Source: Clostridia bacterium
GTDB taxonomy: Bacteria > Bacillota > Clostridia > Oscillospirales > CAG-272
Direction: 5' to 3'
Assembly: GCA_017451735.1 (NCBI GenBank)
Contig: JAFTNU010000040.1
Span: forward strand, 22,101-86,100
Length of the DNA: 64,000 nucleotides
The position numbers and the translations under genes were made by a program. Position 1 is the stretch's first letter. Every line of letters begins with the position of its first letter. The notes under the pieces are model-generated. The model searched no databases, was not told where the DNA came from, and worked only from the letters and a program-made list of their open reading frames with translations. Below, one piece after another: positions 15,146 to 46,323 of this stretch.

Positions 15146-15159
15146 AATACCGTTGCCAT

Positions 15160-31538: not shown

Positions 31539-31641
31539 TTGCTTTTCCTCCCCATATCGCATTCTTGCCTTTATCCTAACATGCAAGCCCTGAAAATACA
31601 AGACTTTTGTTCAGCAAAACCAGACATTTATTCATTCGATT

Positions 31642-31758: not shown

Positions 31759-31759
31759 C

Positions 31760-31797
31760 AAAAAGCACCTCGCCGCTATAGCAACGAGGTGCTTTTG
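31760..31797 (-). terminator. Terminator of the 100-aa gene
   Basis: aaaagcacctcg...cgaggtgctttt. Confidence 0.8.
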
Positions 31798-32100: not shown

Positions 32101-32166
32101 TGTACTGCCTCCCTTCACAGATTATCTTATATAGTATAGCACGCCGAAAGAAAAAAGTCAATGCCT

Positions 32167-32186
32167 TTCACGGAAAACATCATGTG
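32167..32186 (+). repeat. Left copy of 20-bp direct repeat (target duplication or att core)
   Basis: TTCACGGAAAACATCATGTG, identical to 45546-45565. Confidence 0.95.
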
Positions 32187-32243
32187 TCTAAATGTTAAAA
32201 TCTAACTTACAGACCGATTCTTCCCCGGTTTGTGCTTTAGGGG

Positions 32244-32306
32244 GCCCTTTTTGGACGCGCGAGCGCGTCCAAAAAGGGCTGTGCCCCCCCGCTAACAGGG
32301 GGGTAC
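32244..32306 (+). other. Double-strand origin: perfect 17-bp hairpin plus Rep_trans nick-site hairpin
   Basis: gccctttttggacgcgc-ga-gcgcgtccaaaaagggc, then gtgCCCCCCCGCTAACAGGGGGGtac, matching the CTAACAGGGGGG nic motif of ICEBs1/Tn916 Rep_trans (MOB_T) enzymes. Confidence 0.85.
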
Positions 32307-32342
32307 AGATATTCAATCTGATCTTTGGGGGTGCCGTTGAAA

Positions 32343-33590
32343 ATGGAACGCAAAGACGGCATTTTGATAGACTGGCTCTCGATCACATCGAAAACCATGT
32401 TCCCCGAGGATATGATGAAATTGATAGGAATTACCTCCGGGTGGCAGTTGCGCGGGCGCGGTGTTCGTGGGTATGGCGATTCATACTATAACAACTCCAT
32501 TCAAATTCATTTCGGCGGTACGCAAGATAACGTATGGTTGGAAATGAGCGGCCAGGGGTGTAGAACCTTTGAGTCCGATTCTATTCACAAAGATTATAAC
32601 GTAATCTTTGATGCTCTCATGAATAACCTTAACACTATGCGCATTACTCGTTTGGATATTGCGTTTGATGATTTTTCGGGTCTGCTGGATATTGATCGTA
32701 TTTGTGACGATACCCGGCCCAGAAATCACAAATATAAGGCCAAGACCGATTATGCTCAAGTGATAGAATCCACCAACGGTATGTCTTGTGATATAGGTTC
32801 TCCAAAGTCCCTGCTGCTTGTTCGTATCTATGATAAATTGGCAGAGCGGCTATCAAAAATGCGTGGGGCCGAGGATCGGGAAAAGGTCCGAGAGTCCATT
32901 CCACATTGGGTAAGATGTGAGTTACAGCTGCGCGATGAACGCGCTTTGGAATTTGTGCGCTATTTGCGCGGCAAGGATCCAATTACAGGAGCTCCCGAGC
33001 CCATGGACCTCGGACAAGCCTATTGTGGAGTATTGGCCAATTATCTGGATTACGGCTATGAAGTTCCCGCCCGCGATAATCCTAACAAAATGGTTTGGCA
33101 TCGTTTTCCGTACTGGAAAAAGTTTCTCAAAGAAGTCGGTGCGATTTCCTTGTACCGTAAGCCAGGCAAAGGTTATAACCTGGAGCGTATGGTTAATTTC
33201 GTGCAGAACAATGCCGGAAACGCTATCGATGCTGCCATCAGTATATTCGGCCCTTCGAAATTTTTTGATATTATTTCCAGTCGTCAGATTTCACAAAGTC
33301 CTAAATATTTGGAGTTGATTAAACAGTACGGTACATATGAGGAACGTGTTGAGACCGATATGGCCATTGATTTCCTGGAGAATAGTGCTCCCGAAACGGA
33401 AGAAGAAAAAGAAAACCGTCACCCGTTCTACAAGGTATTTGCCCGTCGTGAGTGGGTCGTTTGGGGCGGTGTTCGTCATTTGATGTGTCGCGAGTGCGGT
33501 CAAGTCATGCCGGAAAAGGCGTTTGTAGATGTGTCTATTCACTCTAATTTCGCCCGGTGTTATAAGTGCGATAATAAGAAATCCCCATAA
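32343..33590 (+). CDS. Rep_trans-family rolling-circle replication initiator with C-terminal CxxC..CxxC zinc ribbon
   Basis: IDWLSIT, LEMSGQGCR, ITRLDIAFDD, IGSPKS..VRIYDKLAER (catalytic Tyr), WVRCELQLR. Confidence 0.93.
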   Translation: MERKDGILIDWLSITSKTMFPEDMMKLIGITSGWQLRGRGVRGYGDSYYNNSIQIHFGGTQDNVWLEMSGQGCRTFESDSIHKDYNVIFDALMNNLNTMRITRLDIAFDDFSGLLDIDRICDDTRPRNHKYKAKTDYAQVIESTNGMSCDIGSPKSLLLVRIYDKLAERLSKMRGAEDREKVRESIPHWVRCELQLRDERALEFVRYLRGKDPITGAPEPMDLGQAYCGVLANYLDYGYEVPARDNPNKMVWHRFPYWKKFLKEVGAISLYRKPGKGYNLERMVNFVQNNAGNAIDAAISIFGPSKFFDIISSRQISQSPKYLELIKQYGTYEERVETDMAIDFLENSAPETEEEKENRHPFYKVFARREWVVWGGVRHLMCRECGQVMPEKAFVDVSIHSNFARCYKCDNKKSP

Positions 33591-33629
33591 ACATAAAAAA
33601 CATATAAAAGAAAAGCGAGGAAAAGCAAA

Positions 33630-33950
33630 ATGAGAGGATTTATCGTAGGAAAAGAAGTAACCAGTTACATTTCCAAGGAGGAAAAAAACAAGCCTAATCC
33701 GCAGTCTAAGATTAGTCGCACCCTGTATGTGGTCTGGGATAAGCCCCGCCGTTCTGTGGAGGGTATGGAGGGATTCAAGGCTGAGGCCGTTTGGGTTCCG
33801 TTCTCCTGTGATGATATCAAAGTGGGTGACTATTGTGAATTTGAGTATGAAGCCCGTAATACTTCCAAGGGTTCATTTGCATCCCTGGTAGATATCATCG
33901 TCATCGGCAAAGCCGATATTCTTCTGGAAGCTTCCAAAGCTAAGGCTTGA
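33630..33950 (+). CDS. Putative single-stranded DNA-binding protein (pV-like)
   Basis: 106 aa, beta-rich and aromatic, directly after rep as in filamentous phages; GAGG RBS; function inferred from position. Confidence 0.6.
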   Translation: MRGFIVGKEVTSYISKEEKNKPNPQSKISRTLYVVWDKPRRSVEGMEGFKAEAVWVPFSCDDIKVGDYCEFEYEARNTSKGSFASLVDIIVIGKADILLEASKAKA

Positions 33951-34072
33951 CGGACTTCTCTGCCGGGAAGAGTCGGGGATTTCTTTACTTCCGGCAATCG
34001 CGCCATTCTGTTGAGGGACGGATAAGGCGCATCACATTTATCTATAACGCTACCCTCATAGCGTGTAGAACT

Positions 34073-34100
34073 GGGTGGGGGCGCGGCTCCCACCCTTTTA
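34073..34100 (+). terminator. Terminator after rep-ssb
   Basis: gggtggg-ggcgcggct-cccaccc followed by tttta. Confidence 0.55.
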
Positions 34101-34201
34101 TTGCATTTAAGGCGGTGATTGTATGAAGTAGACGCATAGTCTTTTCTCAGATATATCTATCCCAAACTTCCCACAAAATCAAAAAACAAAGGAGAAAATC
34201 G

Positions 34202-34324
34202 ATGGCAAGACGTAGAAACGGTCGTAAACGTAAGAGATATTTTCTTACTCCGAAAAGAGCTCTTTTAAGAGAGGATATTGGAAGGGCTTTTGGACGGGAA
34301 GAAAAAGACATCGTTAAAAATTAA
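34202..34324 (+). CDS. Small Arg/Lys-rich peptide (40 aa), not in ORF track
   Basis: AAAGGAG RBS; MARRRNGRKRKRYFLTPKRALLREDIGRAFGREEKDIVKN. Confidence 0.6.
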   Translation: MARRRNGRKRKRYFLTPKRALLREDIGRAFGREEKDIVKN

Positions 34325-34349
34325 AACATAAAAAAGTGAGGTATAAATC

Positions 34350-34880
34350 ATGAGTAAGAAAACAAAAAGAATTCTGACCGCCGTAGGCATGTTGATGCTG
34401 GGTGTGCTGCTGACGGTTGTGGTCAGTAATGCCGTTGGTGTTGCAACCTGGAACATCCGCGAAGCCAATGAAGCAAACCTGTATCAGTCGGTTACCTTTG
34501 CCGGTACGGACGGTGTGATCGCCAGCGGCGAAAACGGCGTCAAGATCGAGCTAACCGATGACAATGAGATCAAGGTCAAGGGCACCTCCGAGACAGATGG
34601 TACTTATGTGATCGGTAAGATCACTTTGGAGGCAAACACATCGTACATCTTTGACTCCTCCCTGACCAATGGTTCTAACGGTACCATGTATATGTCCATC
34701 ATGAGCGGCGAGACAGAGCTGGCTAAATCTTATTCCGGTGCTGTGGTCTTTACGCCCACCAGTGCCACAGAGGTGCAGATCTGCCTTTACATCAATAAGG
34801 ATGTCAAAACCAATGTGACTTTGTGTCCCGTTCTCTGCAAGGGTACCACTACCGGTGATATCGTCGATTTCTGGGAGTAA
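34350..34880 (+). CDS. Membrane-anchored beta-rich protein, putative virion protein
   Basis: GAGGT RBS; basic N-terminus plus hydrophobic helix, then Thr/Ser/Gly-rich beta strands. Confidence 0.75.
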   Translation: MSKKTKRILTAVGMLMLGVLLTVVVSNAVGVATWNIREANEANLYQSVTFAGTDGVIASGENGVKIELTDDNEIKVKGTSETDGTYVIGKITLEANTSYIFDSSLTNGSNGTMYMSIMSGETELAKSYSGAVVFTPTSATEVQICLYINKDVKTNVTLCPVLCKGTTTGDIVDFWE

Positions 34881-34883
34881 TTC

Positions 34884-36176
34884 ATGGGCAAGTTTTGGCT
34901 TGCGTTGTTGGTAGTCCTGGTGTGTCTCGGATGCGTTGTTGGGGCGACAAACTTCAATAACGCATTCGGCACAGTGGAACGTGTATCCTCCGAGGCCTCC
35001 GAATCCGATGATATATCGACAACCAAATTCATTGTGATCGAGGAGGAATTCTCCAGTGTAGAAGCTATGAATGCCGGGTTTGAGACCGATGGTGTTCCTT
35101 TCGGTGGGTATGTTCTGATTAACACCGATAATGTTGAGGATGCGGACAACGCGAAATTGTATGTAAAACGTGCGGATGGTTACAAGCTGGTCACCGACTT
35201 GTCCGGTGCTCAAGGTGAGCAAGGCCTCCAGGGTGAGCAAGGCATTCAGGGTGAGCAAGGTCCTCAGGGAGAGCAAGGTTCTCAGGGAGAGCAAGGTCCC
35301 CAGGGTGAGCAAGGCCCTCAGGGTGAGCAAGGTCTCCAGGGCGAGCAAGGTCCCCAGGGTGAGCAAGGTCCCCAGGGTGAGCAAGGTCCTCAGGGTGAGC
35401 AAGGTCCCCAGGGTGAGCAAGGCATTCAGGGAGAGCAAGGTCCTCAGGGAGAGCAAGGTCCCCAGGGTGAGCAAGGCATTCAGGGAGAGCAAGGTCCTCA
35501 GGGTGAGCAAGGTCCTCAGGGTGAGCAAGGTCCTCAAGGTGAAAAGGGTGATCCCGGTGTCAGCGTTATAGGGGCAACCATTAACGCAAGCGGGCATCTT
35601 ATCATTACTCTTTCGGATGGTAATACCATTGATGCAGGATTGGTCATCAGTGGCTCTACCGATAGCGGTTCGGGTGATTCGGGTGACAGCGGTGATTCGG
35701 GAGAAGACACTACGGTTACGGTGACCGACATTTGCTTTTGGGATATTGATAATTCGAAATGGGTAGACAAAAACGATTATGATTACGAAGAATCAGCTCA
35801 AAGAGGCAGTTGTCCGCACTGCGGCAATTTCATATATGCTGAATCCGGCCTCTCGGGACTTGAAGTCGAATGTCCTCATTGTCGAAAAGTCATTCTTTTA
35901 AGCAACCGTGAAGGCTCGCTTGTGGTCGATAGAGTGTACGCTGATGATACCGTGACCTATGAGGTGAATAGTAGCGGTACCATCGATCTGTCCACTATCG
36001 GTACTTACTATGCCGGTGGCTCAATGTATTACTATTACGATGAAGCATATGGTGTGATGTTTTTGACTTGGTATATGTTTGATGAATATGGAGAAGATAT
36101 TACAATTACGATGGATGATGGCACATTGATCACGATTGTATCATCCGATTGGAAATTCAATCCGTATTATGTTTGA
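34884..36176 (+). CDS. Membrane-anchored collagen-like protein, putative adhesin or fibre
   Basis: N-terminal hydrophobic helix, 39 Gly-X-Y triplets, GHLIITLSDG motif, GDS linker, two CPHC motifs. Confidence 0.85.
   Translation: MGKFWLALLVVLVCLGCVVGATNFNNAFGTVERVSSEASESDDISTTKFIVIEEEFSSVEAMNAGFETDGVPFGGYVLINTDNVEDADNAKLYVKRADGYKLVTDLSGAQGEQGLQGEQGIQGEQGPQGEQGSQGEQGPQGEQGPQGEQGLQGEQGPQGEQGPQGEQGPQGEQGPQGEQGIQGEQGPQGEQGPQGEQGIQGEQGPQGEQGPQGEQGPQGEKGDPGVSVIGATINASGHLIITLSDGNTIDAGLVISGSTDSGSGDSGDSGDSGEDTTVTVTDICFWDIDNSKWVDKNDYDYEESAQRGSCPHCGNFIYAESGLSGLEVECPHCRKVILLSNREGSLVVDRVYADDTVTYEVNSSGTIDLSTIGTYYAGGSMYYYYDEAYGVMFLTWYMFDEYGEDITITMDDGTLITIVSSDWKFNPYYV
35214..35537 (+). repeat. 18 tandem copies of an 18-bp coding unit (GEQG[P/I/L/S]Q)
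   Basis: ggtgagcaaggtccccag-like unit repeated without spacers. Confidence 0.95.
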
Positions 36177-36194
36177 TCAGAATAGCGAATCAAA

Positions 36195-36231
36195 TAACAG
36201 CCTATGGCCTTTTGGGCTGTAGGCTGTTTTT
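36195..36231 (+). terminator. Internal terminator in the structural module
   Basis: aacagcctatggcc-tttt-gggctgtaggctgtt followed by a T run. Confidence 0.6.
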
Positions 36232-36245
36232 ATAAGGAGCGAGAG

Positions 36246-36935
36246 ATGAGAAAAAGAGTTTTACTGATATTGTTAGTATTGGCGCTTGCGCTTTGTATTT
36301 TGCTGTGCGTGTCGTTGAGTCAAAGCATGAATGAAACCGTTAGAGTTTCCGGGACGGCATCCAATACAAATACAACGGAGCCTGAGCCCGATACAACAGA
36401 ACCCGACACAGGTACAGAGGATGATACTGATCAGGAAACGGGCAGTGATTTGACGGTTGAAGCTCCTACATCCCCCGCCGGCTATGTGAATCAAATTCAG
36501 TTCAATGATGTGACATTGACTGATGTTGTGTTTAGCGAAGAGGCCGAGCTTTACGGCAATTTCTATGTTTATGCCGATTCCGGTACGATTACATTGGACG
36601 CGGATTTGGATGAATATGCTGATGATTCTTTATTGCCCGCCATCGGTACTATAACACTGGAACCGGGATATACCTATTATGGCTTTTATACCACATCGTT
36701 TTTGGAAAACGGAGAATACCGTGAGATCAATAAAGTGTATACAGGTACAGATTTGTTCGGTAGTGAGTATTCCTATACTGATTTCACACTTTTGGGTTGG
36801 TATGATACCAACGGTATCACTGTTGAACATAGTGAAACAAGGGTGCTTTATATGCGAAATGGTATAGACGGTTCTCATGAATTACTGGAATGCGGCAATT
36901 ATTATCTTTATATCATCGCTGTTCCCAACACATAA
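36246..36935 (+). CDS. Membrane-anchored acidic protein with Thr/Glu/Pro/Asp linker
   Basis: AAGGAG RBS; MRKRVLLILLVLALALCILL; TTEPEPDTTEPDT linker. Confidence 0.75.
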   Translation: MRKRVLLILLVLALALCILLCVSLSQSMNETVRVSGTASNTNTTEPEPDTTEPDTGTEDDTDQETGSDLTVEAPTSPAGYVNQIQFNDVTLTDVVFSEEAELYGNFYVYADSGTITLDADLDEYADDSLLPAIGTITLEPGYTYYGFYTTSFLENGEYREINKVYTGTDLFGSEYSYTDFTLLGWYDTNGITVEHSETRVLYMRNGIDGSHELLECGNYYLYIIAVPNT

Positions 36936-36953
36936 AGCGAGAAGGAGTAAAAA

Positions 36954-38873
36954 ATGAAAAGAAGAATTTTGTGTTTGATCTTGTGCGTGATAACGCTTGT
37001 GCCGCTGCTTGCCATTGCACCGAGCGCGGCCACCGATGTGGATGTGGCGGATGAGCTGGAAAACTATACGATTGACGGGAAAGCATTTGATCAGAGCGAT
37101 TATCCGTTGGATCCTATGGATACCGATGTGTACATTTTGACTATCCGAGAGGAGGGCGTGGATCCTGCTGTTTCGTATGTACAATGGAGTTATAAGTTCT
37201 ATATCTATTTTTATAATCCTTCCGGGAGAAATCTGACCATGAGTGATGATTCGGTCGTATTCATGACTTTCAGTGAGGAAAACGATGACACCTATGTCTC
37301 CACAGCAGAGCCATGTTACGTGGTAGATATCCAATATAGCTCGGATAACCGTTTCCTTCGGGTGCAGTATGATGTTCCCAAACTGTTTGTAAGTCAGAAT
37401 TATGACCGTCGCATCTATCATATTTATGAGTTCCGCTTTTGGGAGTATCATGCTAAGTATAATGCTTGCTTTTTTGTAACCGGCTTTGAAACAACTGATA
37501 ACTTGGCTTATAGTGAGGGATCTTTTTTGACCTTGGATTTGGAGCTGAACGGAACGGTCTGGCGTGATGAGAACTTTGTGTCTTTGGATGACCCTTATCA
37601 TTACCAGGAGCTGGCCACCGTTTATTTTACAATTCCCCAGGATGTCTATGAAGTATATGATCGTATTTATCAGGTAACGACCGAATTTTTCCTGTTTAAT
37701 TCTACGCCGATCGTTGTGACCAATTCAGAAGAATTGAACAATATGGATATTGCTTATCTGAAGTCCGGATACACGGTAGACAATTACATTGAGGGTGTTC
37801 CTACGCTTTCTTATGGTGATCTGTATTATGTAAAATATTTTGCCGGAGAACCGAATGTGTTTATTGCTCCGGAATGGGTTTATAATCCTGCAGATAAAGC
37901 ATATCTGGAGTCTATATATGATTTCTTTTCAGTATATGGATATGATTATTTTACAGAGATTTACCCGTCTTTGTGTTATTTCTTCTATAATCCCGATATT
38001 GTGGTAGACGAAAAGAACAATTCCTTTTATCAGGCGGTTCCTTCCGGTCAATTGACCTCTTATGTAGACCAGTTTTCGCAATACTATTATCCTGATACTT
38101 ATACATCATTTGTTTGCGGTATAGCTCCCGAATTGTATGAAAGCATGGAAAAGTACAATGTGGTGTTGAATCCTGAGGATATTTACGATTATGAATTGGG
38201 TACCACGATTGATAAGCCTTATGAAGATCGCAGTTGGTGGGCCCGCATTTGGAATCTGGATAAATGGCAAGAGGTTACCGAGAAGGTAAAGCAGGTTTTT
38301 GTTATAACCGATCCTGCTGCTGTTGCGGCACAGTATGCAAATGATCCGGTTGGCCTTTCCGAGGCATATAAAATTGGTGTTGCGGATGCTCCGGGCTTTA
38401 TTGAATATTTGCGCAATGCAGATGGAGTTGTGACGCTTTGTCGCTTTGCCAATACCCAGTATGAGTGTCGCGAATTGGATTGCAATCCCAAATTGACCGA
38501 TGGTGATGTGTGGCTTTGCCGGGCGAGCTTTTATCAGGATGTGGATGTCACTTTTGTGACGTTTGAAAAAGACGGTAAAGAATACGTGTATGCGGTCAAT
38601 GCTGATCCTATTGATATGGATGGTGGTGTTGGCGTCAAGAATGATGCTAATCTTAAGCCCAGCTTTAATTCAAACGAGTTTAAAAATGCCGTATATGCTT
38701 TGTTGAGCGGCGCCAGGGATGCAGGCAGTAAGTTGAAAAGCACGTTGATCATCGTGGCAATTGTCCTTCTGCTGGTATTCATTGTTTGGCTTATAGTCAA
38801 ATTATTTGGTCCGGGACAGAAGGTTACTATCAAGTACGATCCGCCAGATGGGAAAAGGAAGAGAAAAAAATAA
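36954..38873 (+). CDS. Type I membrane protein, putative attachment (pIII-like) or spike protein
   Basis: AAGGAG RBS; signal peptide ending PSAA; C-terminal TM TLIIVAIVLLLVFIVWLIV plus GKRKRKK tail. Confidence 0.78.
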   Translation: MKRRILCLILCVITLVPLLAIAPSAATDVDVADELENYTIDGKAFDQSDYPLDPMDTDVYILTIREEGVDPAVSYVQWSYKFYIYFYNPSGRNLTMSDDSVVFMTFSEENDDTYVSTAEPCYVVDIQYSSDNRFLRVQYDVPKLFVSQNYDRRIYHIYEFRFWEYHAKYNACFFVTGFETTDNLAYSEGSFLTLDLELNGTVWRDENFVSLDDPYHYQELATVYFTIPQDVYEVYDRIYQVTTEFFLFNSTPIVVTNSEELNNMDIAYLKSGYTVDNYIEGVPTLSYGDLYYVKYFAGEPNVFIAPEWVYNPADKAYLESIYDFFSVYGYDYFTEIYPSLCYFFYNPDIVVDEKNNSFYQAVPSGQLTSYVDQFSQYYYPDTYTSFVCGIAPELYESMEKYNVVLNPEDIYDYELGTTIDKPYEDRSWWARIWNLDKWQEVTEKVKQVFVITDPAAVAAQYANDPVGLSEAYKIGVADAPGFIEYLRNADGVVTLCRFANTQYECRELDCNPKLTDGDVWLCRASFYQDVDVTFVTFEKDGKEYVYAVNADPIDMDGGVGVKNDANLKPSFNSNEFKNAVYALLSGARDAGSKLKSTLIIVAIVLLLVFIVWLIVKLFGPGQKVTIKYDPPDGKRKRKK

Positions 38874-38947
38874 CAAAAATCCCCGGCTGAAATATGCCGG
38901 AGACAATAAATAGTCGTGTGGACTTAAAACACAGAAAGGAAATACAT

Positions 38948-39145
38948 ATGGCAAGAAGTTATTATGGAAACAAGGGCTACAAAGGTCGGAGCGGCAAAAA
39001 GAGCAAATATAATGATTTGCAGAGATTTGCATATAAGATGGGGCAGATTGAAAGGGGTCGAAAAAATCCTGATAGTCTGATTACCGAATCTTATAATAAC
39101 GGAAAAACACCTCGTGAAAAGAAGCAAAAGAAGTCTTTGTTTTGA
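38948..39145 (+). CDS. Small basic protein (65 aa)
   Basis: AAAGGA RBS; MARSYYGNKGYKGRSGKKSK...KKQKKSLF; followed by a terminator. Confidence 0.7.
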   Translation: MARSYYGNKGYKGRSGKKSKYNDLQRFAYKMGQIERGRKNPDSLITESYNNGKTPREKKQKKSLF

Positions 39146-39151
39146 TTAACA

Positions 39152-39184
39152 CAAAAGCACTCGCTCATAGAGCGAGTGCTTTTG
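39152..39184. terminator. Bidirectional terminator
   Basis: caaaagcactcgctc-ata-gagcgagtgcttttg. Confidence 0.85.
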
Positions 39185-39988
39185 TTATTCGTTTACTTTC
39201 CCAGGTTCGGCAAATGCAATTTTCATTTTGTAGGAGTTATTTTCGACTTCCTGTTTATTGATATATATTACGGTGATATTGTCTCTTTGGCACAACTGCG
39301 GATATATTTCCGTTTTGTAGTCTTTTGTGTTTTGATATGAGATATTGGATTTTCCATATCCCCAAAATTCTATATAAATGTTGTTAAGGATGGTGCCGTC
39401 TTTTCGTTTTAATTTTGGGATATAAAAATCTGGGGTGAGTTTGTGATTTTTATCTAATGGTATTATTTTTTCGTATGCATGCAATATTCCTGTATGATAT
39501 AGCCAATCATCTATTATTTGTTCATAAGGACTTTTGACCTTGTGCCCGTCTTCACAAAGGAAAGGAGATGCGTATTCAGCATCAAGTAGTTTAAACGAGT
39601 CGCAGTTTTCCGCTTTTAAAAACAATGTTTTGTTTTTGTATTTTGAGTAACAGTCGCGACAAAATAGATATGTTCCAGCACTATTTTCACAGATAATACA
39701 TTTTCTGTCGGTTTCATCATTTTCGAATCCATCCTGAGGAATGCAATCATCAATTAGCTCGAATTCATCACAGTTTTTGCATTGTAATGTAATAGTTTTA
39801 TTTTTGTACTGATAATAGCATTCACGGCAAAAGAGGTATTCGCCGCTATCGTTGCCACAAATAAGACACTCTCCTGACACATCCTCCCATTCTTCAAAGG
39901 ATAGATTTTCTTCGTCATTTTCTTCATAATAGCAATTTTTGCAAAGGGGGTAACGTCCGCTATATTTTCCACATTTTTCACAATACAT
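39185..39988 (-). CDS. Cargo protein with three CxxC-x9-CxxC zinc fingers and a C-terminal PD-(D/E)XK-like nuclease domain
   Basis: CEKC..LCKNC, CLIC..FCREC, CIIC..FCRDC; DGHKVKSPYE..IDDWLY..HAYE..PDFYIP..YIEFWG; AT-rich. Confidence 0.72.
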   Translation of the reverse strand: MYCEKCGKYSGRYPLCKNCYYEENDEENLSFEEWEDVSGECLICGNDSGEYLFCRECYYQYKNKTITLQCKNCDEFELIDDCIPQDGFENDETDRKCIICENSAGTYLFCRDCYSKYKNKTLFLKAENCDSFKLLDAEYASPFLCEDGHKVKSPYEQIIDDWLYHTGILHAYEKIIPLDKNHKLTPDFYIPKLKRKDGTILNNIYIEFWGYGKSNISYQNTKDYKTEIYPQLCQRDNITVIYINKQEVENNSYKMKIAFAEPGKVNE

Positions 39989-40047
39989 GGCACATACTCC
40001 TTATGTGTTTGTTGTAGCAATTATACACCCTCACCAAGTAAAAAGTC

Positions 40048-40077
40048 AAGCCCCGCGGGAATTCCCGCGGGGCTTTA
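40048..40077. terminator. Terminator after ATPase gene
   Basis: aagccccgcggg-aatt-cccgcggggcttt. Confidence 0.7.
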
Positions 40078-40095
40078 TCTTTTGAAAGTGCACTT

Positions 40096-42405
40096 TCAAT
40101 CCCTGTGTTTTCTTTGTTCCAGGTACTGCCGGAGCGCTGCGGCCAGGCGTCTTTGAGCGGGCTTGACCTCGGTGTAATAGTTGAAGTCCTCCGGATCCAG
40201 ATTCTCATTGGTCTGCATGAGCGGATCAATCGGTTCCGGCTTGTCCGCATCCACATTGTAGTAGGTAAACAGATCTCGGTTGAGGAAGGAATGCGCTTTC
40301 TTCATATCGAGCACGGTGGCGTACTTGTCCCGGTATGTGGCCAAGTCGTTCAGCCCCACCTTGCAGCGGGCGGTCTGCAGCTCGGTGAAGGCTTTGAAAT
40401 AGTCGGTGGCATAGCGCTCCGCATAGGCCTTTTTGAACATAACATAGTATTTCTTTTCCTCCACATTTTTGCTTTCCTTGCCCGCCTGGATGTTGGCCAC
40501 GGTGGTGGTCTCGCAGAGCATGTTCTGCTGATAGTATCCGTAAAGGTTTTGACGCCGAGTGAGATACCCGAACAGAGCGGAGGCAACTCCCTGGCCCAGC
40601 CAGGTGATCAGATGATGATTGCCCCATTTGAGTCGGCTCTCATTCCATACGCCCCGCCACCAGTCTATGTATTTGCCCAGGATCCCATCCTCGACCCAAA
40701 AGAGAGGCAAGGCATTACAGGTCTCCTTGTGCTTCTCGATATGCATGACCTGACAGAGTTCATGGCCGTCAGCGCCCCAGGAGGACACGCGCTGAGCATT
40801 GCAGAATACGTGCATAAAGCATCGATTGGCAAGCATGGCCGGCTGGCCCGACATTTTGAACCAGGTGTTGAACAGGTCGTTCTTCTGATTGCACTCATCC
40901 TCCCTGGCCTTGACCTCCTTCAGCTGATCCATGTTTTTGCGCTCCTTGTCGATCTCTGTGATCACCAGAACGCCAAACTCAAAGGCCCCAACATTGGGAT
41001 TGTCCTCCAGGATCTTCCGCCCCGGCCGAAGCATATCATAGTCCAGAATGTGGCAGTATTTGCCCTCGATGTGGATCCTGGCAGGATCCCGGTGAAAAAA
41101 GTCCACGTCCACTAACGGAAAGTTGCCCTCGTCCTCCAGGATGAAATCGTCACGGATCGGCAGATTGGCCAGGATGTAGGAGGTGGTCATGGTGTAGCTG
41201 AAATAAGCCTGCACGTATTCCTCCAGCGCATCCCACACGGAGATCTCCTTCAGGTTGTCGTTGAAGTAGTAGGCATACTGCTCTACATCATAATGCCAGA
41301 TCTGTGTAGGGTCCATGGAAAAGGCATAGGTCAGCCGCCGCACGCGGATCCAGTTGCGAGCTGATACCCAGTGCTTGATGGTGCCGTCGTGAATACGGTT
41401 CTTGATCTCCAGCTCAAAGGTGATCCACGGGAACCGTGGGAACTTCATTTGATTCTCATTGAGGATTTTCAGATACTCCTCCCGATCCATGGCGGCACGG
41501 GTAATGGCCATGTCGTTCTGTACCATATCCTTGCCGGCGCGCATGGGTGCCGCAAAGAAGGTGGCCTGTGGAGCCTCATTCAGCATCCCCTTGTTCTTTG
41601 CCTCCATGTGCTGGAGGCGATCCATACCCTTGCGCTGCCTCCACTTGTCAAATAGCCAGATCAAAAGCACCGCCCAGCAGATTCCCGGCAAGACATGCCA
41701 GGTCAAAAGCACATCTACCACCAGCTTGATGCATTGCCGCCCAAAGGTGGATAAATCCAGAAAATTGAGAATGTAGAAATAGTAGGCTAAGAATTCCAAT
41801 ATCAGGGTATATACGCCCAGGTATAAGAGCCAGATAGCGGCAAAAGCCGTCCACCATCGGGAGCCCCGGAAGAAGTCCCAGAAATCCAGACACCAGTCTT
41901 TGATATGACCGTAAGGCGTTGCTACGATTCGCTTGTATATCCGCAGGGGCTTTGTGTCTTGGTTGTAGTCGTTGTTGATGTCATCCCAGGTTACGATCAC
42001 AGGCATTGAGAGAAAGATCACCACGATCATGAAGATAGAAAGCCAGTAGATGATCTGCATGAAGTAGTACAGTAAGAACGACAGATATTGGAGCAGATTC
42101 TCTCCCACGAAAATATGGTCCTTTAGCTCGGTGAGCTTGCGGACGATCTCGGCCAGATCAATGCCGATCTCGCTTTGCAGATTGACTGCCGAAAAGTCGT
42201 TGACCGTCTGCTGAAACGGGAGACGGTCTCCCAACCCCAGGAGATCTGCAAAGGTGTAGGCAATGATGCGGCCGAAGTCGCCAAGGCCCTCCAGAAATCG
42301 GTAGAACGGATATTGATAGACGAACACTCCCAGGGCCACGGACCCCAGGATGATGCCAAGGCACAACCAGTGCCGGTAATTGATACTTTTCAGCTTGTTC
42401 CACAT
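40096..42405 (-). CDS. Multi-TM P-loop ATPase, pI/Zot-like morphogenesis or packaging protein (FtsK-HerA superfamily, inferred)
   Basis: Several N-terminal TM segments; Walker A variant FAAPMRAGKD; Walker B GVLVITEIDKE; HVFCNAQR. Confidence 0.7.
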   Translation of the reverse strand: MWNKLKSINYRHWLCLGIILGSVALGVFVYQYPFYRFLEGLGDFGRIIAYTFADLLGLGDRLPFQQTVNDFSAVNLQSEIGIDLAEIVRKLTELKDHIFVGENLLQYLSFLLYYFMQIIYWLSIFMIVVIFLSMPVIVTWDDINNDYNQDTKPLRIYKRIVATPYGHIKDWCLDFWDFFRGSRWWTAFAAIWLLYLGVYTLILEFLAYYFYILNFLDLSTFGRQCIKLVVDVLLTWHVLPGICWAVLLIWLFDKWRQRKGMDRLQHMEAKNKGMLNEAPQATFFAAPMRAGKDMVQNDMAITRAAMDREEYLKILNENQMKFPRFPWITFELEIKNRIHDGTIKHWVSARNWIRVRRLTYAFSMDPTQIWHYDVEQYAYYFNDNLKEISVWDALEEYVQAYFSYTMTTSYILANLPIRDDFILEDEGNFPLVDVDFFHRDPARIHIEGKYCHILDYDMLRPGRKILEDNPNVGAFEFGVLVITEIDKERKNMDQLKEVKAREDECNQKNDLFNTWFKMSGQPAMLANRCFMHVFCNAQRVSSWGADGHELCQVMHIEKHKETCNALPLFWVEDGILGKYIDWWRGVWNESRLKWGNHHLITWLGQGVASALFGYLTRRQNLYGYYQQNMLCETTTVANIQAGKESKNVEEKKYYVMFKKAYAERYATDYFKAFTELQTARCKVGLNDLATYRDKYATVLDMKKAHSFLNRDLFTYYNVDADKPEPIDPLMQTNENLDPEDFNYYTEVKPAQRRLAAALRQYLEQRKHRD

Positions 42406-42412
42406 GGTTACC

Positions 42413-42511
42413 TCATACGATGTAATAGAGCAAGAATACCAGATAGCCGAGGAACAAAGCCCCGGCTATAATGGCAAGGATGGTTAGGGTGCGTAGGAGG
42501 ATCTTTTTCAT
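42413..42511 (-). CDS. 32-aa single-TM peptide, not in ORF track
   Basis: MKKILLRTLTILAIIAGALFLGYLVFLLYYIV; AAGGAGG RBS; ATGA overlap with the upstream gene; stop runs into the ATPase RBS. Confidence 0.75.
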   Translation of the reverse strand: MKKILLRTLTILAIIAGALFLGYLVFLLYYIV

Positions 42512-42780
42512 TTGTTGTCCTCCTTATAGCATAGTTCATACATTTCCAAACGGGTATAAGTAAGATGCCGCCAGCAACCTTGCATTTCGTCCCAAAACTC
42601 GACTTCGTGATGCCAGCAATCTATATTAAGGCAACATATACATTCGAATGTTTCGCCGTCCACCGTGATCTCCCAGTGCTCTTTATCGTTATGAGCGCTG
42701 ATGATACCGCCGATAATACCGCAAATGACCACCAAGGCCAGCCATACGATCCATGTGTTATTTGAAATAAATTCAAGCAT
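42508..42780 (-). CDS. Hypothetical 90-aa protein with N-terminal TM helix
   Basis: AAGGAGG RBS; MLEFISNNTWIVWLALVVICGIIGGII. Confidence 0.65.
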   Translation of the reverse strand: MLEFISNNTWIVWLALVVICGIIGGIISAHNDKEHWEITVDGETFECICCLNIDCWHHEVEFWDEMQGCWRHLTYTRLEMYELCYKEDNK

Positions 42781-42956
42781 TTTTCTTCCTCCTTTCGTGA
42801 CGCATTTTTTTTGAGTGCCAATACAACGTGCGGGCAGTATTCGCCGTCTATACCGCGCCAAGCGCAGTCGATCATATTAGGGTGAGTTTTTTTGTATTTT
42901 TCTTTGCAGACGGTGCAAGCAAATTCCAAAAGCTCGTTTTTAGGTTCGATTTTCAT
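42621..42956 (-). CDS. Small Cys-rich hypothetical protein, 3' end uncertain
   Basis: GAAAGGA RBS; CTVC..C..C; overlaps the next gene unless the A8 run at 42805-42812 is one base too long. Confidence 0.4.
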   Translation of the reverse strand: MKIEPKNELLEFACTVCKEKYKKTHPNMIDCAWRGIDGEYCPHVVLALKKNASRKEEEKCLNLFQITHGSYGWPWWSFAVLSAVSSALITIKSTGRSRWTAKHSNVYVALI

Positions 42957-43044
42957 GTATTTTCCTTTCCGGGTGCCGAGGCACCCTGCGTGGTAGCGGA
43001 CGGGAGTAGGGCTCCGCAGGGCGGGGGCCGAAGCCCCCGTGGGT

Positions 43045-43227
43045 TTATGCCACTTCAAAAAGAATGGCAATTTTAAGCGTGTTGTTGAAATAGTCTGTAA
43101 GATCTGTCATAGCTTGAAAAATCTTAATGCCAGGGATCTCGATAACATCGTAGGCACTAAAGGCAACGCTTTTTATGTTGTATCCTTTGCTCCCTTTGCT
43201 GATGGTGAAAATAGCGGTCTTTTCCAT
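43045..43227 (-). CDS. Hypothetical protein (60 aa)
   Basis: AAGGAG RBS, packed operon. Confidence 0.6.
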   Translation of the reverse strand: MEKTAIFTISKGSKGYNIKSVAFSAYDVIEIPGIKIFQAMTDLTDYFNNTLKIAILFEVA

Positions 43228-43237
43228 ATCTTTCTCC

Positions 43238-43435
43238 TTAAAGAGTGTAATTGAAGTGTATATTTAAAAAGGTTTTGATTTTGTCTTTGAGTTGTATTGC
43301 TTCTTCAGTTGGGATGCTGTATTCAGCGATGTTTAAAGCGCGGTATATTTCAAACAAATCTGTATCAGTAAGTTGATCGATGGAGATATTGTCAGGTCCT
43401 GAAAAATGATGCCTGATAATATAAGCGTTTTTCAT
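43238..43435 (-). CDS. Hypothetical protein (65 aa)
   Basis: TAATG stop-start overlap with the upstream ORF. Confidence 0.6.
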   Translation of the reverse strand: MKNAYIIRHHFSGPDNISIDQLTDTDLFEIYRALNIAEYSIPTEEAIQLKDKIKTFLNIHFNYTL

Positions 43436-43620
43436 TAGTCATTATTTCCTTTCACTTCGATATAGATCGCATCGTTCTCGGTGTAGATATATTTGATCTC
43501 TCGCTCTGCCGCCTCCTCGACGGTCAGCACCTTGCGCCGTTCGGCCTCATAGTCATAGTAGCAAAAGACGATCCGGCATTGAATGTCGATGCCTTGGCAC
43601 TTCATATCGTTGTAGGTCAT
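43435..43620 (-). CDS. Hypothetical protein (61 aa)
   Basis: GAAAGGAAGG RBS. Confidence 0.6.
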   Translation of the reverse strand: MTYNDMKCQGIDIQCRIVFCYYDYEAERRKVLTVEEAAEREIKYIYTENDAIYIEVKGNND

Positions 43621-43650
43621 TTTCCTTCCTTTCCGCCCAAAATTGAGGGC

Positions 43651-43679
43651 TTGACAAATATTTTGGTTTGTGTTATACT
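43651..43679 (+). promoter_or_regulatory. SigA promoter (extended -10) firing antisense to the small-gene operon
   Basis: TTGACA-17-TATACT with TGn. Confidence 0.8.
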
Positions 43680-43685
43680 ATGTGT

Positions 43686-43776
43686 GCAGGTGACTAACAG
43701 GGCGGGCAGGCTCGCCCCGTTAGCCGTTAAGATACTCGAGTGCGCTCTGGGCAGAGGACTCGGGTATCTTTTTTAT
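43686..43776 (+). ncRNA. Candidate ~90-nt antisense regulatory RNA
   Basis: Promoter, hairpin ctaacagggcgggc-ag-gctcgccccgttag, then terminator aagatactcgagt...actcgggtatctt plus T run. Confidence 0.55.
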
Positions 43777-43880
43777 TTAGTTAAGTAGTCGATAAGTTGA
43801 GCAATTTCCGCATCGCTCCAGTGGAGTTTACGGAAATACTCGAAAATGCGTTGAATGTGCTTGTCATTCAAAGTGGGCAT
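43773..43880 (-). CDS. 35-aa peptide, possible regulator
   Basis: GAAAGGA RBS; MPTLNDKHIQRIFEYFRKLHWSDAEIAQLIDYLTK. Confidence 0.55.
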   Translation of the reverse strand: MPTLNDKHIQRIFEYFRKLHWSDAEIAQLIDYLTK

Positions 43881-44472
43881 TTCTTCCATCCTTTCCACCA
43901 CCTGCCAAGTAACTGCCGGCTTTTCACCCCGTGAGAGTTCTCGGCACTCACGGCTACCATCCATATCCCCCCCTTTCCCGGAACCCCAGAGCCCAACGGG
44001 CTCCGCATCCCCACCGCCGGGGCGGTGGACTTCATGCTCCTTCGGTCCCTGCTTCCCATCGCGTCCTTTCGCTCGCGAGGGATATTCAGACCTCCGGTGT
44101 GATTCCTTCATGCTCCTTTCGGTTGCCCTGTTCCCGAAGATGAAGCAGCACTGTAGACCCGCAGGGTCAAGGGATCAGACGAAAAAGTTTTCCTACCTTA
44201 AAAGTCGATCTCAGGAAAAGTTTTTCGGCCCCTTGACCATGCGAGGATACTGTGCTACGATTCGAAGCGGAACTGGGAAACAGAAAGGTGCGGGAAGAAC
44301 ACTCAAGGTAGGAATATCCGAGCAAAAGAGCGAAATCCGCGTCCCGCCATCCGCAGATGGCGAAATCCCAACATTTGAAGTAAAAGGTAGAGCAAACGGT
44401 CTGGGGGCGCGGGAGCCAGCGGGTCAGCGGCCCCGCGCCCCCAGTGCTCTCCTTGAAGGAAAGGAATAGGAT

Positions 44473-45531
44473 ATGGCATACAAGCGCATCACTTACACGC
44501 TCCGACTGGAGATAGAACGCTTCTACAACACGTTCCACATGAACGCCGTTCAGATTGCCAAGCTGCTTGGCTACTCACATGTCGCTATCTATGCCGAACT
44601 CAAAAAAGGCTATTGGATGAAAAGAAATTCCGATTGGACCGAAACCAAGCAATATAGTGCAGACAGAGCCCAGCAGAATGCAGATTTTAACAAAACTACA
44701 CGTGGCGCCCAGCTTAAAATAGAAAACGATCACGACACCCTCGCCGTGATCGAAAAATTGATGCTCAAGCGCAAACTCTCTCCCGCTTCTGCCCTCGCCA
44801 CCATTGAGAGAGAACATATTCCCGTAAAAACCAAAATGTGCGTTACAACCCTTTACCATTACATTGATAAAGGACTTTTTCGCCGTCTCACAAATAAGGA
44901 TCTTATCTATAAGGGTACAAGAAAAAGAAAATACCGCAAGGTAGAGAAAGCGAAAACTCCACCTCGCGGTACTTCTATTGATTTTCGTCCTCCTCACGTT
45001 CTCAACCGGGACGAATTTGGTCACTGGGAACTTGATAGCGTGATCGGCAAAAGAGCTAAGGGCCAAACGCTCCTTGTCCTCACAGAGCGAAAAACGCGCT
45101 TTGAGCTTGTTTTCCGTTCTAAGGATAAAACGGCCGCCTCCACCGTAAAGATGCTGGACAGGCTTGAAAAACGGCTTGGTACACCCAAGTTTAAGAAGAT
45201 TTTCAAAACAATTACGTGTGATAATGGATGCGAGTTTGCGGACTATGAAAATATGGAACTATCGACCAGAGGTAATTCCCGTAGAACAAGCGTTTATTAC
45301 TGCCACCCATATAGATCTTCTGAGCGTGGATCCAATGAGAACCAAAACGGCATCCTCCGGCGCTTCATCAAGAAGGGCACCGCTATATCACATTATACCG
45401 ATGCGGAAATAGCTCAGGCACGCGATTATTTGAACGACATGCCCCGCAAACTCTTTAATTGGGAAACGGCCCGCGAACGCTTTAATGCCGAGCTTGCCAC
45501 CCTCGGAATAAAATTTTTTGAGAAAATTTAA
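44473..45531 (+). CDS. IS30-family DDE transposase
   Basis: N-terminal HTH, GHWELDSVIG, LTERKTR, TITCDNGCEF, CHPYRSSERGSNENQNGILRRF, LNDMPRK. Confidence 0.95.
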   Translation: MAYKRITYTLRLEIERFYNTFHMNAVQIAKLLGYSHVAIYAELKKGYWMKRNSDWTETKQYSADRAQQNADFNKTTRGAQLKIENDHDTLAVIEKLMLKRKLSPASALATIEREHIPVKTKMCVTTLYHYIDKGLFRRLTNKDLIYKGTRKRKYRKVEKAKTPPRGTSIDFRPPHVLNRDEFGHWELDSVIGKRAKGQTLLVLTERKTRFELVFRSKDKTAASTVKMLDRLEKRLGTPKFKKIFKTITCDNGCEFADYENMELSTRGNSRRTSVYYCHPYRSSERGSNENQNGILRRFIKKGTAISHYTDAEIAQARDYLNDMPRKLFNWETARERFNAELATLGIKFFEKI

Positions 45532-46319
45532 TTTAGGGGTTGACATTCACGGAAAACATCATGTGCGGCAAGCGCCTCCCGCTTGCTCTCACCCAAAGCA
45601 TGATAGGCCAACAGCTCATGCGTCAACCCGCGGGCGGCACAGTAGGCCCGAATACGCTCCACCTCTTCCCCCTGATTGAAATCGGGGATCACAGGGGTAC
45701 GGATGATCATTTTTTTACCCGAATTTTGCAAACGGTCCAGATTTTTTAGGATCAATGTATTGGAAACACCGGTTCCGCGACAGTGAAGCGCGCTGTCAAG
45801 CGCTTTGATATCATACAAAAAAATATCTGTATAGGGCAGAACTCTCTCAAAGGCCGCATACGGCACATTTCCCGCAGTATCTACCGCCACCGAAACGCCG
45901 TTTTTCTGACACCGTTCCGCCACATTCGCCAAAAAATCGGGATAGAGCATGCACTCGCCGCCCGAAAAGGTCACACCGCCGCCCGTGGCATGATAATAGG
46001 GCTTGTCGGCCAGGATCGCGGTCAGCAATTCCTCCACGGTATAAGGTTTGCCGTAAAGCCTTCGCGCCTCCGTGGGACAGCCCGTGACGCAAGCGCCGCA
46101 GACCGTGCAGGCCGCAGGCGAAGCACAAACCTTGGCACAATTGCCACAGCCCATGCACTTCTCAGCAAAAAAAGCAATTTGGGCATCGGGGGACTTCCCC
46201 TCCGGGTTGTGGCACCAGAAGCAGTTCAGATTGCACCCCTTGAAAAAGATCACGGTACGCACACCGGGGCCATCATTCAGCGAAGCGCGCTTTATATCAA
46301 AAATCAGCGGTTTTTTCAT
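45528..46319 (-). CDS. Glycyl-radical enzyme activating protein (radical SAM with ferredoxin insert)
   Basis: DGPGVRTVIFFKGCNLNCFWCHNPE, CxxCxxC insert, GGVTFSGGE; last residues CQPLN come from the inserted element. Confidence 0.93.
   Translation of the reverse strand: MKKPLIFDIKRASLNDGPGVRTVIFFKGCNLNCFWCHNPEGKSPDAQIAFFAEKCMGCGNCAKVCASPAACTVCGACVTGCPTEARRLYGKPYTVEELLTAILADKPYYHATGGGVTFSGGECMLYPDFLANVAERCQKNGVSVAVDTAGNVPYAAFERVLPYTDIFLYDIKALDSALHCRGTGVSNTLILKNLDRLQNSGKKMIIRTPVIPDFNQGEEVERIRAYCAARGLTHELLAYHALGESKREALAAHDVFRECQPLN
45546..45565 (+). repeat. Right copy of 20-bp direct repeat
   Basis: TTCACGGAAAACATCATGTG, identical to 32167-32186. Confidence 0.95.
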
Positions 46320-46323
46320 ACCG

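Follow-up and report, generated by a model that had tools for sequence, protein, structure and literature searches.

What kind of mobile element carries a rolling-circle initiator, an IS30-family transposase and a large set of membrane proteins together, and what does each part contribute? The question is raised by a 13.4-kb block, here called E1, in a 64,000-nt stretch of a Clostridia bacterium genome (CAG-272, Oscillospirales; GenBank assembly GCA_017451735.1, contig JAFTNU010000040.1, positions 22,101 to 86,100 of the forward strand), referred to below as the window. An initial annotation, made from the letters of the DNA, read the block as an inovirus-like provirus that couples rolling-circle replication of single-stranded DNA (ssDNA) to integration by a DDE transposase. 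With modest confidence, we favour the reading that E1 is an intact, provirus-like mobile element of three modules, belonging to a large unannotated family of gut Clostridia. It is probably a non-tailed provirus, and it is not a demonstrable member of the Inoviridae. Its integration and replication modules are of known kinds; its module of membrane proteins and a nucleoside triphosphatase (NTPase) is an orphan.

E1 comprises 13,359 bp (32187–45545) between two identical 20-bp repeats, TTCACGGAAAACATCATGTG, spaced 13,379 bp apart, in agreement with the initial annotation; an extended comparison of the repeats agrees at 23 of 25 positions. The G+C content (GC) of E1 is 0.35–0.52, compared with 0.52–0.57 in the flanks. 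The right repeat copy sits within the last codons of a radical-SAM activase gene (45528–46331, minus strand; Radical_SAM, 1.8e-13), whose open reading frame (ORF) now ends inside E1 as VFRECQPLN-stop; when the gene is read via the left copy, its undisturbed end would be VFRERH-stop. The activase gene is the last of a glycyl-radical-enzyme cluster, preceded by genes for an aldo/keto reductase and a PFL-like enzyme; to the left of E1 lie a 106-aa ORF and a melibiase gene. In a comparison with empty sites, the best match in a relative is 71% identical, too divergent to be informative, and the best contig stops near the site.

Relatives of the membrane/NTPase block were collected by tblastn into 83 loci (one GenBank phage record, two IMG/VR contigs and the best 80 of 447 genome stretches) and, in a second survey, into the best 80 of 475 metagenome loci, giving 163 related loci in all, denoted L0xx. 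An IS30 transposase gene is found in 24 of the 83 loci, usually just 3′ of the Rep gene, on the same strand and at the element end, and in 3 of the 80 metagenome loci. The E1 transposase is intact, as proposed, matching NCBIfam NF033563 with 219.9 bits (cut-off 80) over profile positions 3–267 of 267 and PHROG 4646 at 2.6e-106, and the genome has no other copy of its gene. In 24 of the 27 IS30-positive loci, the stop codon of the transposase gene is followed by the motif CTTGAC(A)TTT(T/A)C(A/G); in the other three, the contig ends within 132 nt of the gene or the gene is partial.

In nine distinct loci, an exact 13–18-bp repeat abuts this motif and recurs 11.1–15.5 kb upstream, beside a conserved left terminus (18 bp in L010, 15 in L013, 15 in L014, 16 in L015, 13–15 in L016, 14 in L045, 17 in L051, 17 in L068 and 16 in L077). 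The nine repeats are mutually unrelated in sequence, and in a chance control a shared 14-mer appeared in 1 of 300 shuffles. Because the repeats differ in each element and abut a conserved terminus, they can be attributed to target-site duplication by transposition, with no fixed attachment site. Among the remaining 15 motif-bearing loci, one duplicates L014, two have low-complexity 13–14-mers that were not counted, and 12 have no repeat, most of these being short of left flank. Four of the 12 (L018, L027, L029 and L047) have sufficient left flank, yet no exact repeat was found.

Inverted repeats accompany some of these ends: an 11-bp subterminal repeat in L010, CGCATTTA-type repeats in L045, L068 and the tailed phage FP_Lagaffe, and in E1 a left terminus, TCTAAATGTTAAAATC, that is an imperfect inverted repeat of the right end. 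The E1 right end reads GGGGTTGACA followed directly by TTCACGGAAAACATCATGTG, and the conserved terminus motif would continue through TTCACG. Since the first 6 nt of the repeat thus coincide with the conserved terminus, the true E1 duplication may comprise all 20 bp, or 14 bp to which coincidence or microhomology adds 6 bp.

One relative, L083, was recovered as a circle of ~13.0 kb, as judged from the 141-nt terminal overlap of its contig. The ends of the contig fall within its transposase gene, after which come the right terminus, a 9–15-nt spacer, an E1-like left terminus and the Rep gene. At the joined ends (~490–560 of L083), TTGACA and TAAAAT stand 17 nt apart, a promoter-like pair that is formed only in the circle, faces the Rep side and is reminiscent of the junction promoters of insertion sequences (ISs). 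The phage FP_Lagaffe has an IS30 transposase, annotated as an integrase and 42% identical to that of E1, with the same motif, a spacer of ~10 nt and a left terminus resembling that of L045 and of L068. A tree of 20 transposases, built without sequences that had stops or matched over a short length only, joins E1 to L010 (support 100/98). The two tailed phages, the main clade of the family (96/97) and one bajarodino inovirus form separate branches of one unresolved group, and ORF3 of the Spiroplasma virus SpV1 lies on a very long branch.

The conserved termini abutting variable duplications in nine relatives, the circular relative and the tailed phage with the same ends make it well supported, by comparison, that the IS30 transposase is the integration enzyme of E1, as initially proposed, and not a passenger. 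The reverse reading would have an unrelated IS landing at the edge of an island, with the 20-bp repeats serving as attachment sites of another recombinase, host-encoded or lost. Twenty base pairs is indeed long for an IS30-family duplication, IS30 itself making duplications of 2–3 bp; in addition, many relatives lack IS30, and the inverted repeats of E1 are weak. However, the transposase gene occupies the same terminal position in the 24 loci that have it, the conserved terminus abuts repeats that differ in every element, the genome holds no second copy, and circular L083 carries the gene across its junction. Furthermore, a repeat search listed no upstream arm that would pair with the right end to bound an IS of ~1.2 kb. 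The passenger reading is therefore largely refuted, and we regard it as very improbable. Long duplications are also on record for the family, IS1630, an element of IS30 type, being reported to make duplications of 19–26 bp (PMC2853133).

Homologous cassettes without the transposase had been named in advance as a finding that would tell against the proposal. Such cassettes are common (59 of 83 and 77 of 80 loci), but their existence does not speak against use of the enzyme in E1. The first gene downstream of Rep in ten IS30-less loci encodes a tyrosine integrase (L053), another rve-type DDE enzyme (L057) or, in the rest, cargo or host-like products. Since many cassettes lack the transposase and some have a tyrosine integrase or another DDE enzyme instead, the transposase is an exchangeable module of the family.

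The left end of E1 encodes the replication module. The Rep protein belongs to Rep_trans, as predicted: it matches PF02486 at E 1.5e-29 (103.5 bits, cut-off 29.6) and Rol_Rep_N at E 5.5e-08, and its activity as a rolling-circle initiator would follow from this family assignment. Its closest relatives in the phage collection are Reps of two circular gut inoviruses, bajarodino virus 34 (40.5% identity, E 4e-60) and bajarodino virus 24 (37.4%). Upstream of rep lies a hairpin with perfect 17-nt arms (32244–32260 and 32263–32279), and the 144 nt of the left end have a predicted folding energy of −36.3 kcal/mol (z −6.0), equalled by 0 of 200 shuffles. The hairpin that had been noted is thus real, and its role as a nick site putative; the left non-coding region is a candidate origin or packaging signal. 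An Rfam search of E1 returned no family. Rolling-circle replication of E1 is supported by these features, and with them the proposal of a complete, integrated mobile element that has a rolling-circle initiator. The following gene had been taken for a single-stranded DNA-binding protein (SSB). Its 106-aa product matches no Pfam, PHROG or NCBIfam family, has no homologue in the 163 related loci, and is not similar to a conserved 226-aa left-end protein of relatives, so that the SSB role is a guess.

The signature gene of the third module encodes the NTPase, the multi-spanning P-loop ATPase of the initial annotation. Its N-terminal ~265 residues contain about four hydrophobic segments (four in the first 243 aa), and its C-terminal ~500 residues form an NTPase domain. 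The lysine of the Walker A motif is invariant across the family; the motif itself is canonical in some members (GVMGAGKT), GTMGKKKTT in most, and APMRAGKD, a deviant form, in the E1 clade. A Walker-B-like motif, hhhhTE(I/V)(D/G)KER, is also present. The E1 protein matches no family in Pfam, PHROG or NCBIfam. Likewise, scanning 35 family members against Pfam at E<=10 gave no match to PF05707 or PF01580, and only generic P-loop families, each in at most 4 of 35. Searches against PDB sequences gave nothing meaningful, and those against the ESM Atlas gave unnamed clusters only (the Atlas model of the protein is poor, pLDDT 0.36). At the level of sequence, the NTPase cannot be assigned to the Zot/pI family.

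Between Rep and the NTPase lie the four membrane-anchored proteins (176, 430, 243 and 639 aa) noted initially, each of which has one N-terminal hydrophobic segment; the 639-aa protein, which we call the spike, also has a C-terminal anchor, and two further membrane ORFs (117 and 32 aa) can be added to the four. The 430-aa protein contains collagen repeats (PF01391, 5.1e-20). Contigs of all three metagenome runs that hold E1 skip 283 bases of its 18-nt repeat array (35254–35538), and one contig skips 211, reflecting either repeat-number variation or assembly collapse. The spike family is kept directly upstream of the NTPase gene in relatives. A spike profile found no match among PDB sequences, where the HRPV-6 fusion protein mentioned in PMC13595969 should be represented, nor in the ORF13 protein of Acholeplasma phage L2, SpV1 ORF1 or the ESM Atlas. 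Basic proteins had been noted as well, and the 83-aa protein, with 22 K+R, confirms this; very basic small proteins contain 22 of 83, 26 of 95 and 42 of 160 K+R residues. Immediately 5′ of the NTPase gene, 68 of 76 loci have a candidate for a hydrophobic peptide of ~30 aa (consensus MKTFKRILKVLL...GYFIYTG), with a basic N-terminus and a C-terminus that is not basic. The 267-aa zinc-ribbon protein occurs in 15 of the 83 loci, usually on the strand opposite to the NTPase, and the 112-aa ORF has homologues in L010 and L046.

As for what E1 does not carry, Pfam scans of 20 ORFs found no integrase, terminase, capsid or type IV secretion system (T4SS) family, as the initial annotation had stated, and no portal, relaxase, VirB4, VirD4, FtsK_SpoIIIE or cell-wall hydrolase family. 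An NCBIfam scan of 10 of these ORFs likewise found no VirB4-type ATPase, coupling protein or relaxase. Neither scan places E1 among T4SS-bearing integrative and conjugative elements, although a coupling protein that has diverged may escape such profiles. Pfam and PHROG scans found no tailed-phage gene.

The membrane/NTPase block is widespread. A word-indexed search returned 138 relatives of the NTPase, none of them named and none with a Pfam domain, and an exhaustive profile search returned 813 clusters at 50% identity. A relative is encoded in 447 of 463 candidate stretches from species-representative genomes and in 475 of 597 from metagenome contigs. Judged by record titles, most hosts are gut Clostridia, among them Christensenellaceae, Oscillospiraceae, Borkfalkia and Pumilibacter. 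When 300 genomes were drawn evenly from the class, the family was found in one other genome and classical Zot in four; within the genus of E1, the family was found in 5 of 39 other genomes. Four contigs (L022, L029, L047 and L049) are binned as Muribaculaceae, Bacteroidaceae, Acidiphilium or Parasutterella, for which binning errors are more likely than a host range beyond Bacillota. We found no paper describing the NTPase family, although supplementary tables of PMC12823448 and 10.1101/548222 may list kin; as far as literature searches reach, this orphan family is undescribed.

Comparison of the loci suggests that the membrane/NTPase block is fixed and that three unrelated rolling-circle initiators and several integration enzymes are swapped around it. 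Specifically, a Rep of G2P type (PF23343) is encoded directly downstream of the NTPase gene in 57 of the 83 loci and 66 of the 80 metagenome loci. A third kind of initiator, Rep_OBD with an S3 helicase, is found in L010 and L083. Rep_trans occurs in E1 and in none of the 83 or the 80 related loci. The spike was found in 36–37 of the 83 loci, an under-count because the spike diverges fast. The closest relative, L010, is in the same genus, with an NTPase 84% identical to that of E1, and at a different chromosomal site.

A second copy, E2, lies on another contig of the same genome (contig C1, locus L004, ~6190–15900), and its NTPase is 45% identical to that of E1. On one strand, E2 encodes a 182-aa anchored protein, a collagen-like protein, a 273-aa protein, a 657-aa spike, a small hydrophobic ORF and the NTPase, followed by a PF23343 Rep (ORF2/G2P type), with no IS30. 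The upstream neighbours encode Lin1244_N, sigma-70 region-4, DUF3102 and PcfJ-like proteins. A perfect 30-bp hairpin repeat at 7139 and 15868 (8,729 bp apart) was considered as the border of E2 and dropped, there being a third partial copy at 592, a conserved 226-aa gene outside the repeats and no IS30-type terminus.

The copy in the window appears intact, with all ORFs open. Three metagenome runs from a single study, possibly including the source sample itself, contain E1 with no or almost no difference; their contigs hold 0.65–0.99 of the sampled words. Contigs bridge the left junction (30500–33211) and the right junction (44333–45984, 44766–46063 and 45480–45985), and read depth inside E1 equals that of the flanks. 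The bridged junctions and equal depth indicate a stably integrated single copy, and say little about rare excised forms. In two runs, contigs lead from 39988 back to 34314 through 10 other letters, along with loose ends near 34127–34132 and 39960–39969; these may represent a variant element sharing the structural block only, or an assembly artefact. No RNA data set is listed as holding E1.

Taken as a three-module element, E1 would work as follows. The Rep_trans initiator, acting with the structured left end, would replicate an excised circle by the rolling-circle mechanism. The IS30 transposase would join both ends into that circle, and would insert it into new targets through a long staggered cut, leaving a duplication of 14–20 bp. 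The N-terminally anchored proteins, the collagen-like fibre, the type-I spike, the basic protein, the ~30-aa peptide and the polytopic NTPase would act together to carry the replicated DNA through the membrane and, without lysis, into a particle that has no tail and is either filament-like or membrane-derived. Such export is, in our view, the most likely role of the block, judging from gene order, protein topology and the swapping of the block between Reps and integrases. Export into a non-tailed particle fits better than a cellular role, because anchored proteins, a spike, basic proteins, the peptide and an NTPase occur together, with no lysis genes.

Several observations weigh against this reading. 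No coat protein of the usual kind was found in E1, the sole candidate being the ~30-aa peptide. The NTPase, proposed initially to be of Zot/pI or FtsK-HerA type, aligns with Zot sequences or a small Zot profile by hhalign over the P-loop only (18–25 columns), and in a scan of the genome of E1 the Pfam Zot and FtsK hidden Markov models (HMMs) gave no match at either NTPase gene, E1 or E2. In the E1 clade, moreover, Asp replaces the Ser/Thr of Walker A, so that NTPase activity is uncertain. No E2 protein matches any PHROG, and the NTPase occurs in only 1 of 50,697 phage records and 2 IMG/VR loci. As regards integration, the 20-bp repeat of E1 is longer than those of its relatives, and its terminal inverted repeats are weak (a match of CTAAAT..TAAA only). 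L083 is the one circular contig among the 163 related loci (0 of the 80 metagenome loci). For E1 itself, the circles that had been proposed were sought in the contigs of the three runs, and no circle or empty-site joint was listed, which is weak evidence because contigs drop rare forms. What stands of the proposal of an inovirus-like ssDNA virus is therefore gene order and Rep kinship; no Zot match, coat protein of the usual kind or circle was added to them. The term inovirus-like is best read as referring to gene order and to a Rep closest to those of gut inoviruses.

The layout of the NTPase admits a different role. FtsK-type translocases and coupling proteins have N-terminal membrane segments followed by a P-loop domain, as does the NTPase. 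E1 could accordingly be a small integrative element with conjugation-like transfer, the Rep serving as relaxase/initiator, the NTPase as an FtsK-like translocase of TraB/TcpA type, and the collagen-like protein and spike as adhesins. Rep_trans proteins include MobT relaxases, and the E1 Rep matches the MobT equivalog NF041493, albeit with 45.2 bits, far under the cut-off of 600, which leaves it outside that family. Its plasmid relatives are mostly in records typed mobilizable (69 of 93). The near absence of the family from phage collections, the lack of PHROG matches for the NTPase and E2 proteins, and the lack of a circle or of excess depth in the three runs would also suit a transfer element. 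However, the 20 ORFs include no conjugation ATPase, coupling protein, relaxase or hydrolase, the FtsK HMM is silent at the NTPase, and the phage-collection entries with the most similar Reps are circular inovirus genomes. A particle accounts better for basic small proteins and for a type-I spike beside the NTPase, and three Rep types and several integrases around a fixed block are the pattern of filamentous and pleomorphic viruses (PMC13595969). We consider the transfer element unlikely.

A true filamentous phage (Tubulavirales), with a pI/Zot ATPase and coat proteins diverged past sequence detection, is in our estimate quite unlikely. The ~30-aa peptide and the anchored proteins would then be coats, and the 639-aa protein a pIII-like adsorption protein. 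The gene order of E1 (rep, small gene, membrane proteins, large anchored protein, peptide, ATPase) mirrors rep, ssb, coat, pIII, pVI and pI; most relatives continue with Rep and IS30, as does bajarodino virus 74, and the E1 Rep is nearest to inovirus Reps. Furthermore, SprT-like metalloprotease genes occur in several family members (L010 8366–9064; L013 2698–3324) and in bajarodino virus 76, which points to a gene pool shared with gut inoviruses. Against these likenesses, the ~30-aa peptide is basic at the wrong terminus, known major coat proteins having the reverse charge pattern; several large membrane proteins and very basic proteins are atypical; and neither HMM searches nor hhalign places the NTPase in Zot. 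Rep_trans is described as the commonest initiator of filamentous phages and as frequently swapped, and the hallmarks of their realm (Efunaviria) as an FtsK-like Zot ATPase and a hydrophobic alpha-helical coat protein (PMC13595969). Described Firmicutes gut inoviruses, in turn, have a stand-alone Zot domain and a recognisable coat protein (PMC8530359), and Enterocloster inoviruses are reported as secreted (PMC10061712).

Comparison with the gut inoviruses makes both the kinship and the difference of E1 concrete. Bajarodino virus 74 (PQ006121) and bajarodino virus 34 (PQ006161), for which we found GenBank records only and no paper, are likewise rolling-circle elements of the gut with a Rep of the same family, and their genomes are small and circular. 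The order in virus 74 is Zot, Rep, a hypothetical gene and an IS30 transposase, the same ATPase–Rep–transposase order as in most E1 relatives, and the bajarodino IS30-type transposase is 41% identical to that of E1. However, the bajarodino genomes encode an annotated Zot of 245–287 aa in 5.8–10.2 kb, whereas E1 encodes a 769-aa polytopic NTPase in 13.4 kb, together with extra large membrane proteins and basic proteins.

A second point of comparison is provided by the IS30-mobilised tailed 'IScream' phages of gut Clostridia described in 2025 (PMC12823448). Like E1, tailed phages such as FP_Lagaffe and Clostridium phage Saumur have gut Clostridia hosts and an outward-facing IS30-family transposase at the prophage end, 42–46% identical to that of E1. 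These are tailed double-stranded DNA phages of 45–48 kb, and are described with IS30 elements at both ends, one of them truncated (PMC12823448). E1 is of 13.4 kb, has a single transposase gene, a rolling-circle Rep and no tailed-phage gene, and thus falls outside the IScream group. IS1630 and other IS30-family elements share with the E1 family a DDE transposase and long variable duplications, which are 13–20 bp in the E1 family; the unit is an IS of 1.1–1.4 kb in the former and 11–15 kb with replication and membrane modules in the latter.

SpV1-R8A2B (Plectroviridae) resembles E1 in having a small rolling-circle genome with an IS30-family transposase, and its 715-aa protein has a signal sequence and a C-terminal anchor, the topology of the E1 spike. 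The specific link to SpV1 drawn initially is nonetheless weak: its transposase is remote in the tree, its ORF1 has no profile similarity to the NTPase or the spike, and its host is wall-less and uses genetic code 4.

Finally, we tentatively raise the possibility that the block builds a new kind of non-tailed bacterial virion, membrane-derived or otherwise non-filamentous, that would be released without lysis from gut Clostridia. Pleolipoviridae and Plasmaviridae serve as the working analogy, having a fixed block of membrane proteins, a C-terminally anchored spike and an NTPase. Swapped replication proteins, including rolling-circle ones, and host-genome integration are also features of these families (PMC13595969; Acholeplasma phage L2 map), and both filamentous and pleomorphic viruses are described as exchanging Reps and integrases while keeping a fixed morphogenesis block (PMC13595969). 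However, the E1 family shows no sequence similarity to L2 ORF1 or ORF13, nor to solved structures; Pleomoviria are known from archaea only and L2 from a wall-less host, whereas the hosts of the E1 family are presumably walled. If the proposal is true, the family would be a bacterial counterpart of the archaeal pleolipoviruses and plasmavirus L2, and a virus lineage at the family level or above that escapes current virus-mining tools. The block would then accept rolling-circle Reps and integrases (IS30, tyrosine, other DDE) interchangeably.

Coordinates of the features of E1 in the window, with strand and basis of each assignment
Feature	Position	Strand	Basis
Left target copy, 20 bp, host sequence from the 3′ end of the activase gene	32167..32186	.	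Repeat comparison
Left terminal non-coding region: left terminus TCTAAATGTTAAAATC, 17-bp-arm hairpin, second G/C hairpin	32187..32324	+	Repeat search and folding
Rep_trans rolling-circle initiator (predicted), 421 aa, Cys-rich C-terminal tail	32325..33590	+	Pfam match
106-aa protein, no known family, at the position of an ssDNA-binding gene	33630..33950	+	Pfam, PHROG and NCBIfam scans
N-terminally anchored membrane protein, 176 aa; homologues in E2, L010 and L012	34350..34880	+	Hydrophobicity, locus comparison
Collagen-like fibre protein, 430 aa, N-terminal anchor, GEQGPQ repeats, Cys-rich C-terminal domain	34884..36176	+	Pfam, repeats
N-terminally anchored membrane protein, 243 aa, T/E/D-rich linker	36204..36935	+	Hydrophobicity
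Spike, 639 aa: signal/anchor, large ectodomain, C-terminal anchor, basic tail	36954..38873	+	Hydrophobicity
Basic protein, 83 aa, 22 K+R; candidate DNA-binding/condensing protein	38894..39145	+	Composition
267-aa protein, several CxxC zinc ribbons	39185..39988	-	ORF inspection, locus comparison
Palindrome TTGAAAGTGCACTTTCAA, candidate operator	40082..40099	.	Motif recurrence
Polytopic membrane P-loop NTPase, 769 aa, family signature gene	40096..42405	-	Hydrophobicity, family alignment
32-aa hydrophobic peptide MKKILLRTLTILAIIAGALFLGYLVFLLYYIV	42413..42511	-	ORF comparison
117-aa membrane protein, one hydrophobic segment, Cys-rich tail	42508..42861	-	Hydrophobicity
Four small ORFs (60, 65, 61 and 112 aa), no known family	43045..44111	-	ORF scan
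IS30-family DDE transposase, 352 aa, outward-facing at the right end	44473..45531	+	NCBIfam, PHROG
Right terminus, ends TTGACA; conserved motif TTGACATT(C/T)ACG reaches 6 nt into the repeat	45532..45545	+	Terminus comparison with relatives
Right target copy, 20 bp	45546..45565	.	Repeat comparison

The palindrome of E1 has counterparts of the form TTGAAAG(N4)CTTTCAA in intergenic positions elsewhere in the family, with three copies in L010 (at 8457, 9535 and 12381) and others 3′ of the transposase gene in L013–L016, L027, L047 and L077; a regulator encoded by the element or by the host may use it as an operator. The window also holds a second low-GC island (15000–21000, GC 0.36–0.44), where one gene product, of 1101 aa, combines three DUF4379 treble-clef zinc fingers with a weak REase_MTES_1575 match.

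That phages can integrate by means of domesticated IS30 transposases was reported in 2025, for tailed gut phages (PMC12823448). E1, its relatives and the bajarodino inoviruses indicate that the same IS30 cassette and end motif also serve small rolling-circle elements, and the E1 family offers a clean comparative demonstration of long (13–20 bp) IS30 target duplications. The cassette marks an unannotated family with hundreds of copies in gut Clostridia, two of them in the genome of E1 and one in a cultured isolate. The isolate is Pumilibacter intestinalis CLA-AA-M10, whose IS30-positive member (L051) is of 15.5 kb and has a 17-bp duplication. The genes presumed to serve morphogenesis in the family resemble nothing known, and current phage and plasmid catalogues have missed the family almost wholly. 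Should its members be viruses, gut viromics overlooks an entire lineage; as transfer elements, they would represent a minimal DNA-export machine of a new type.

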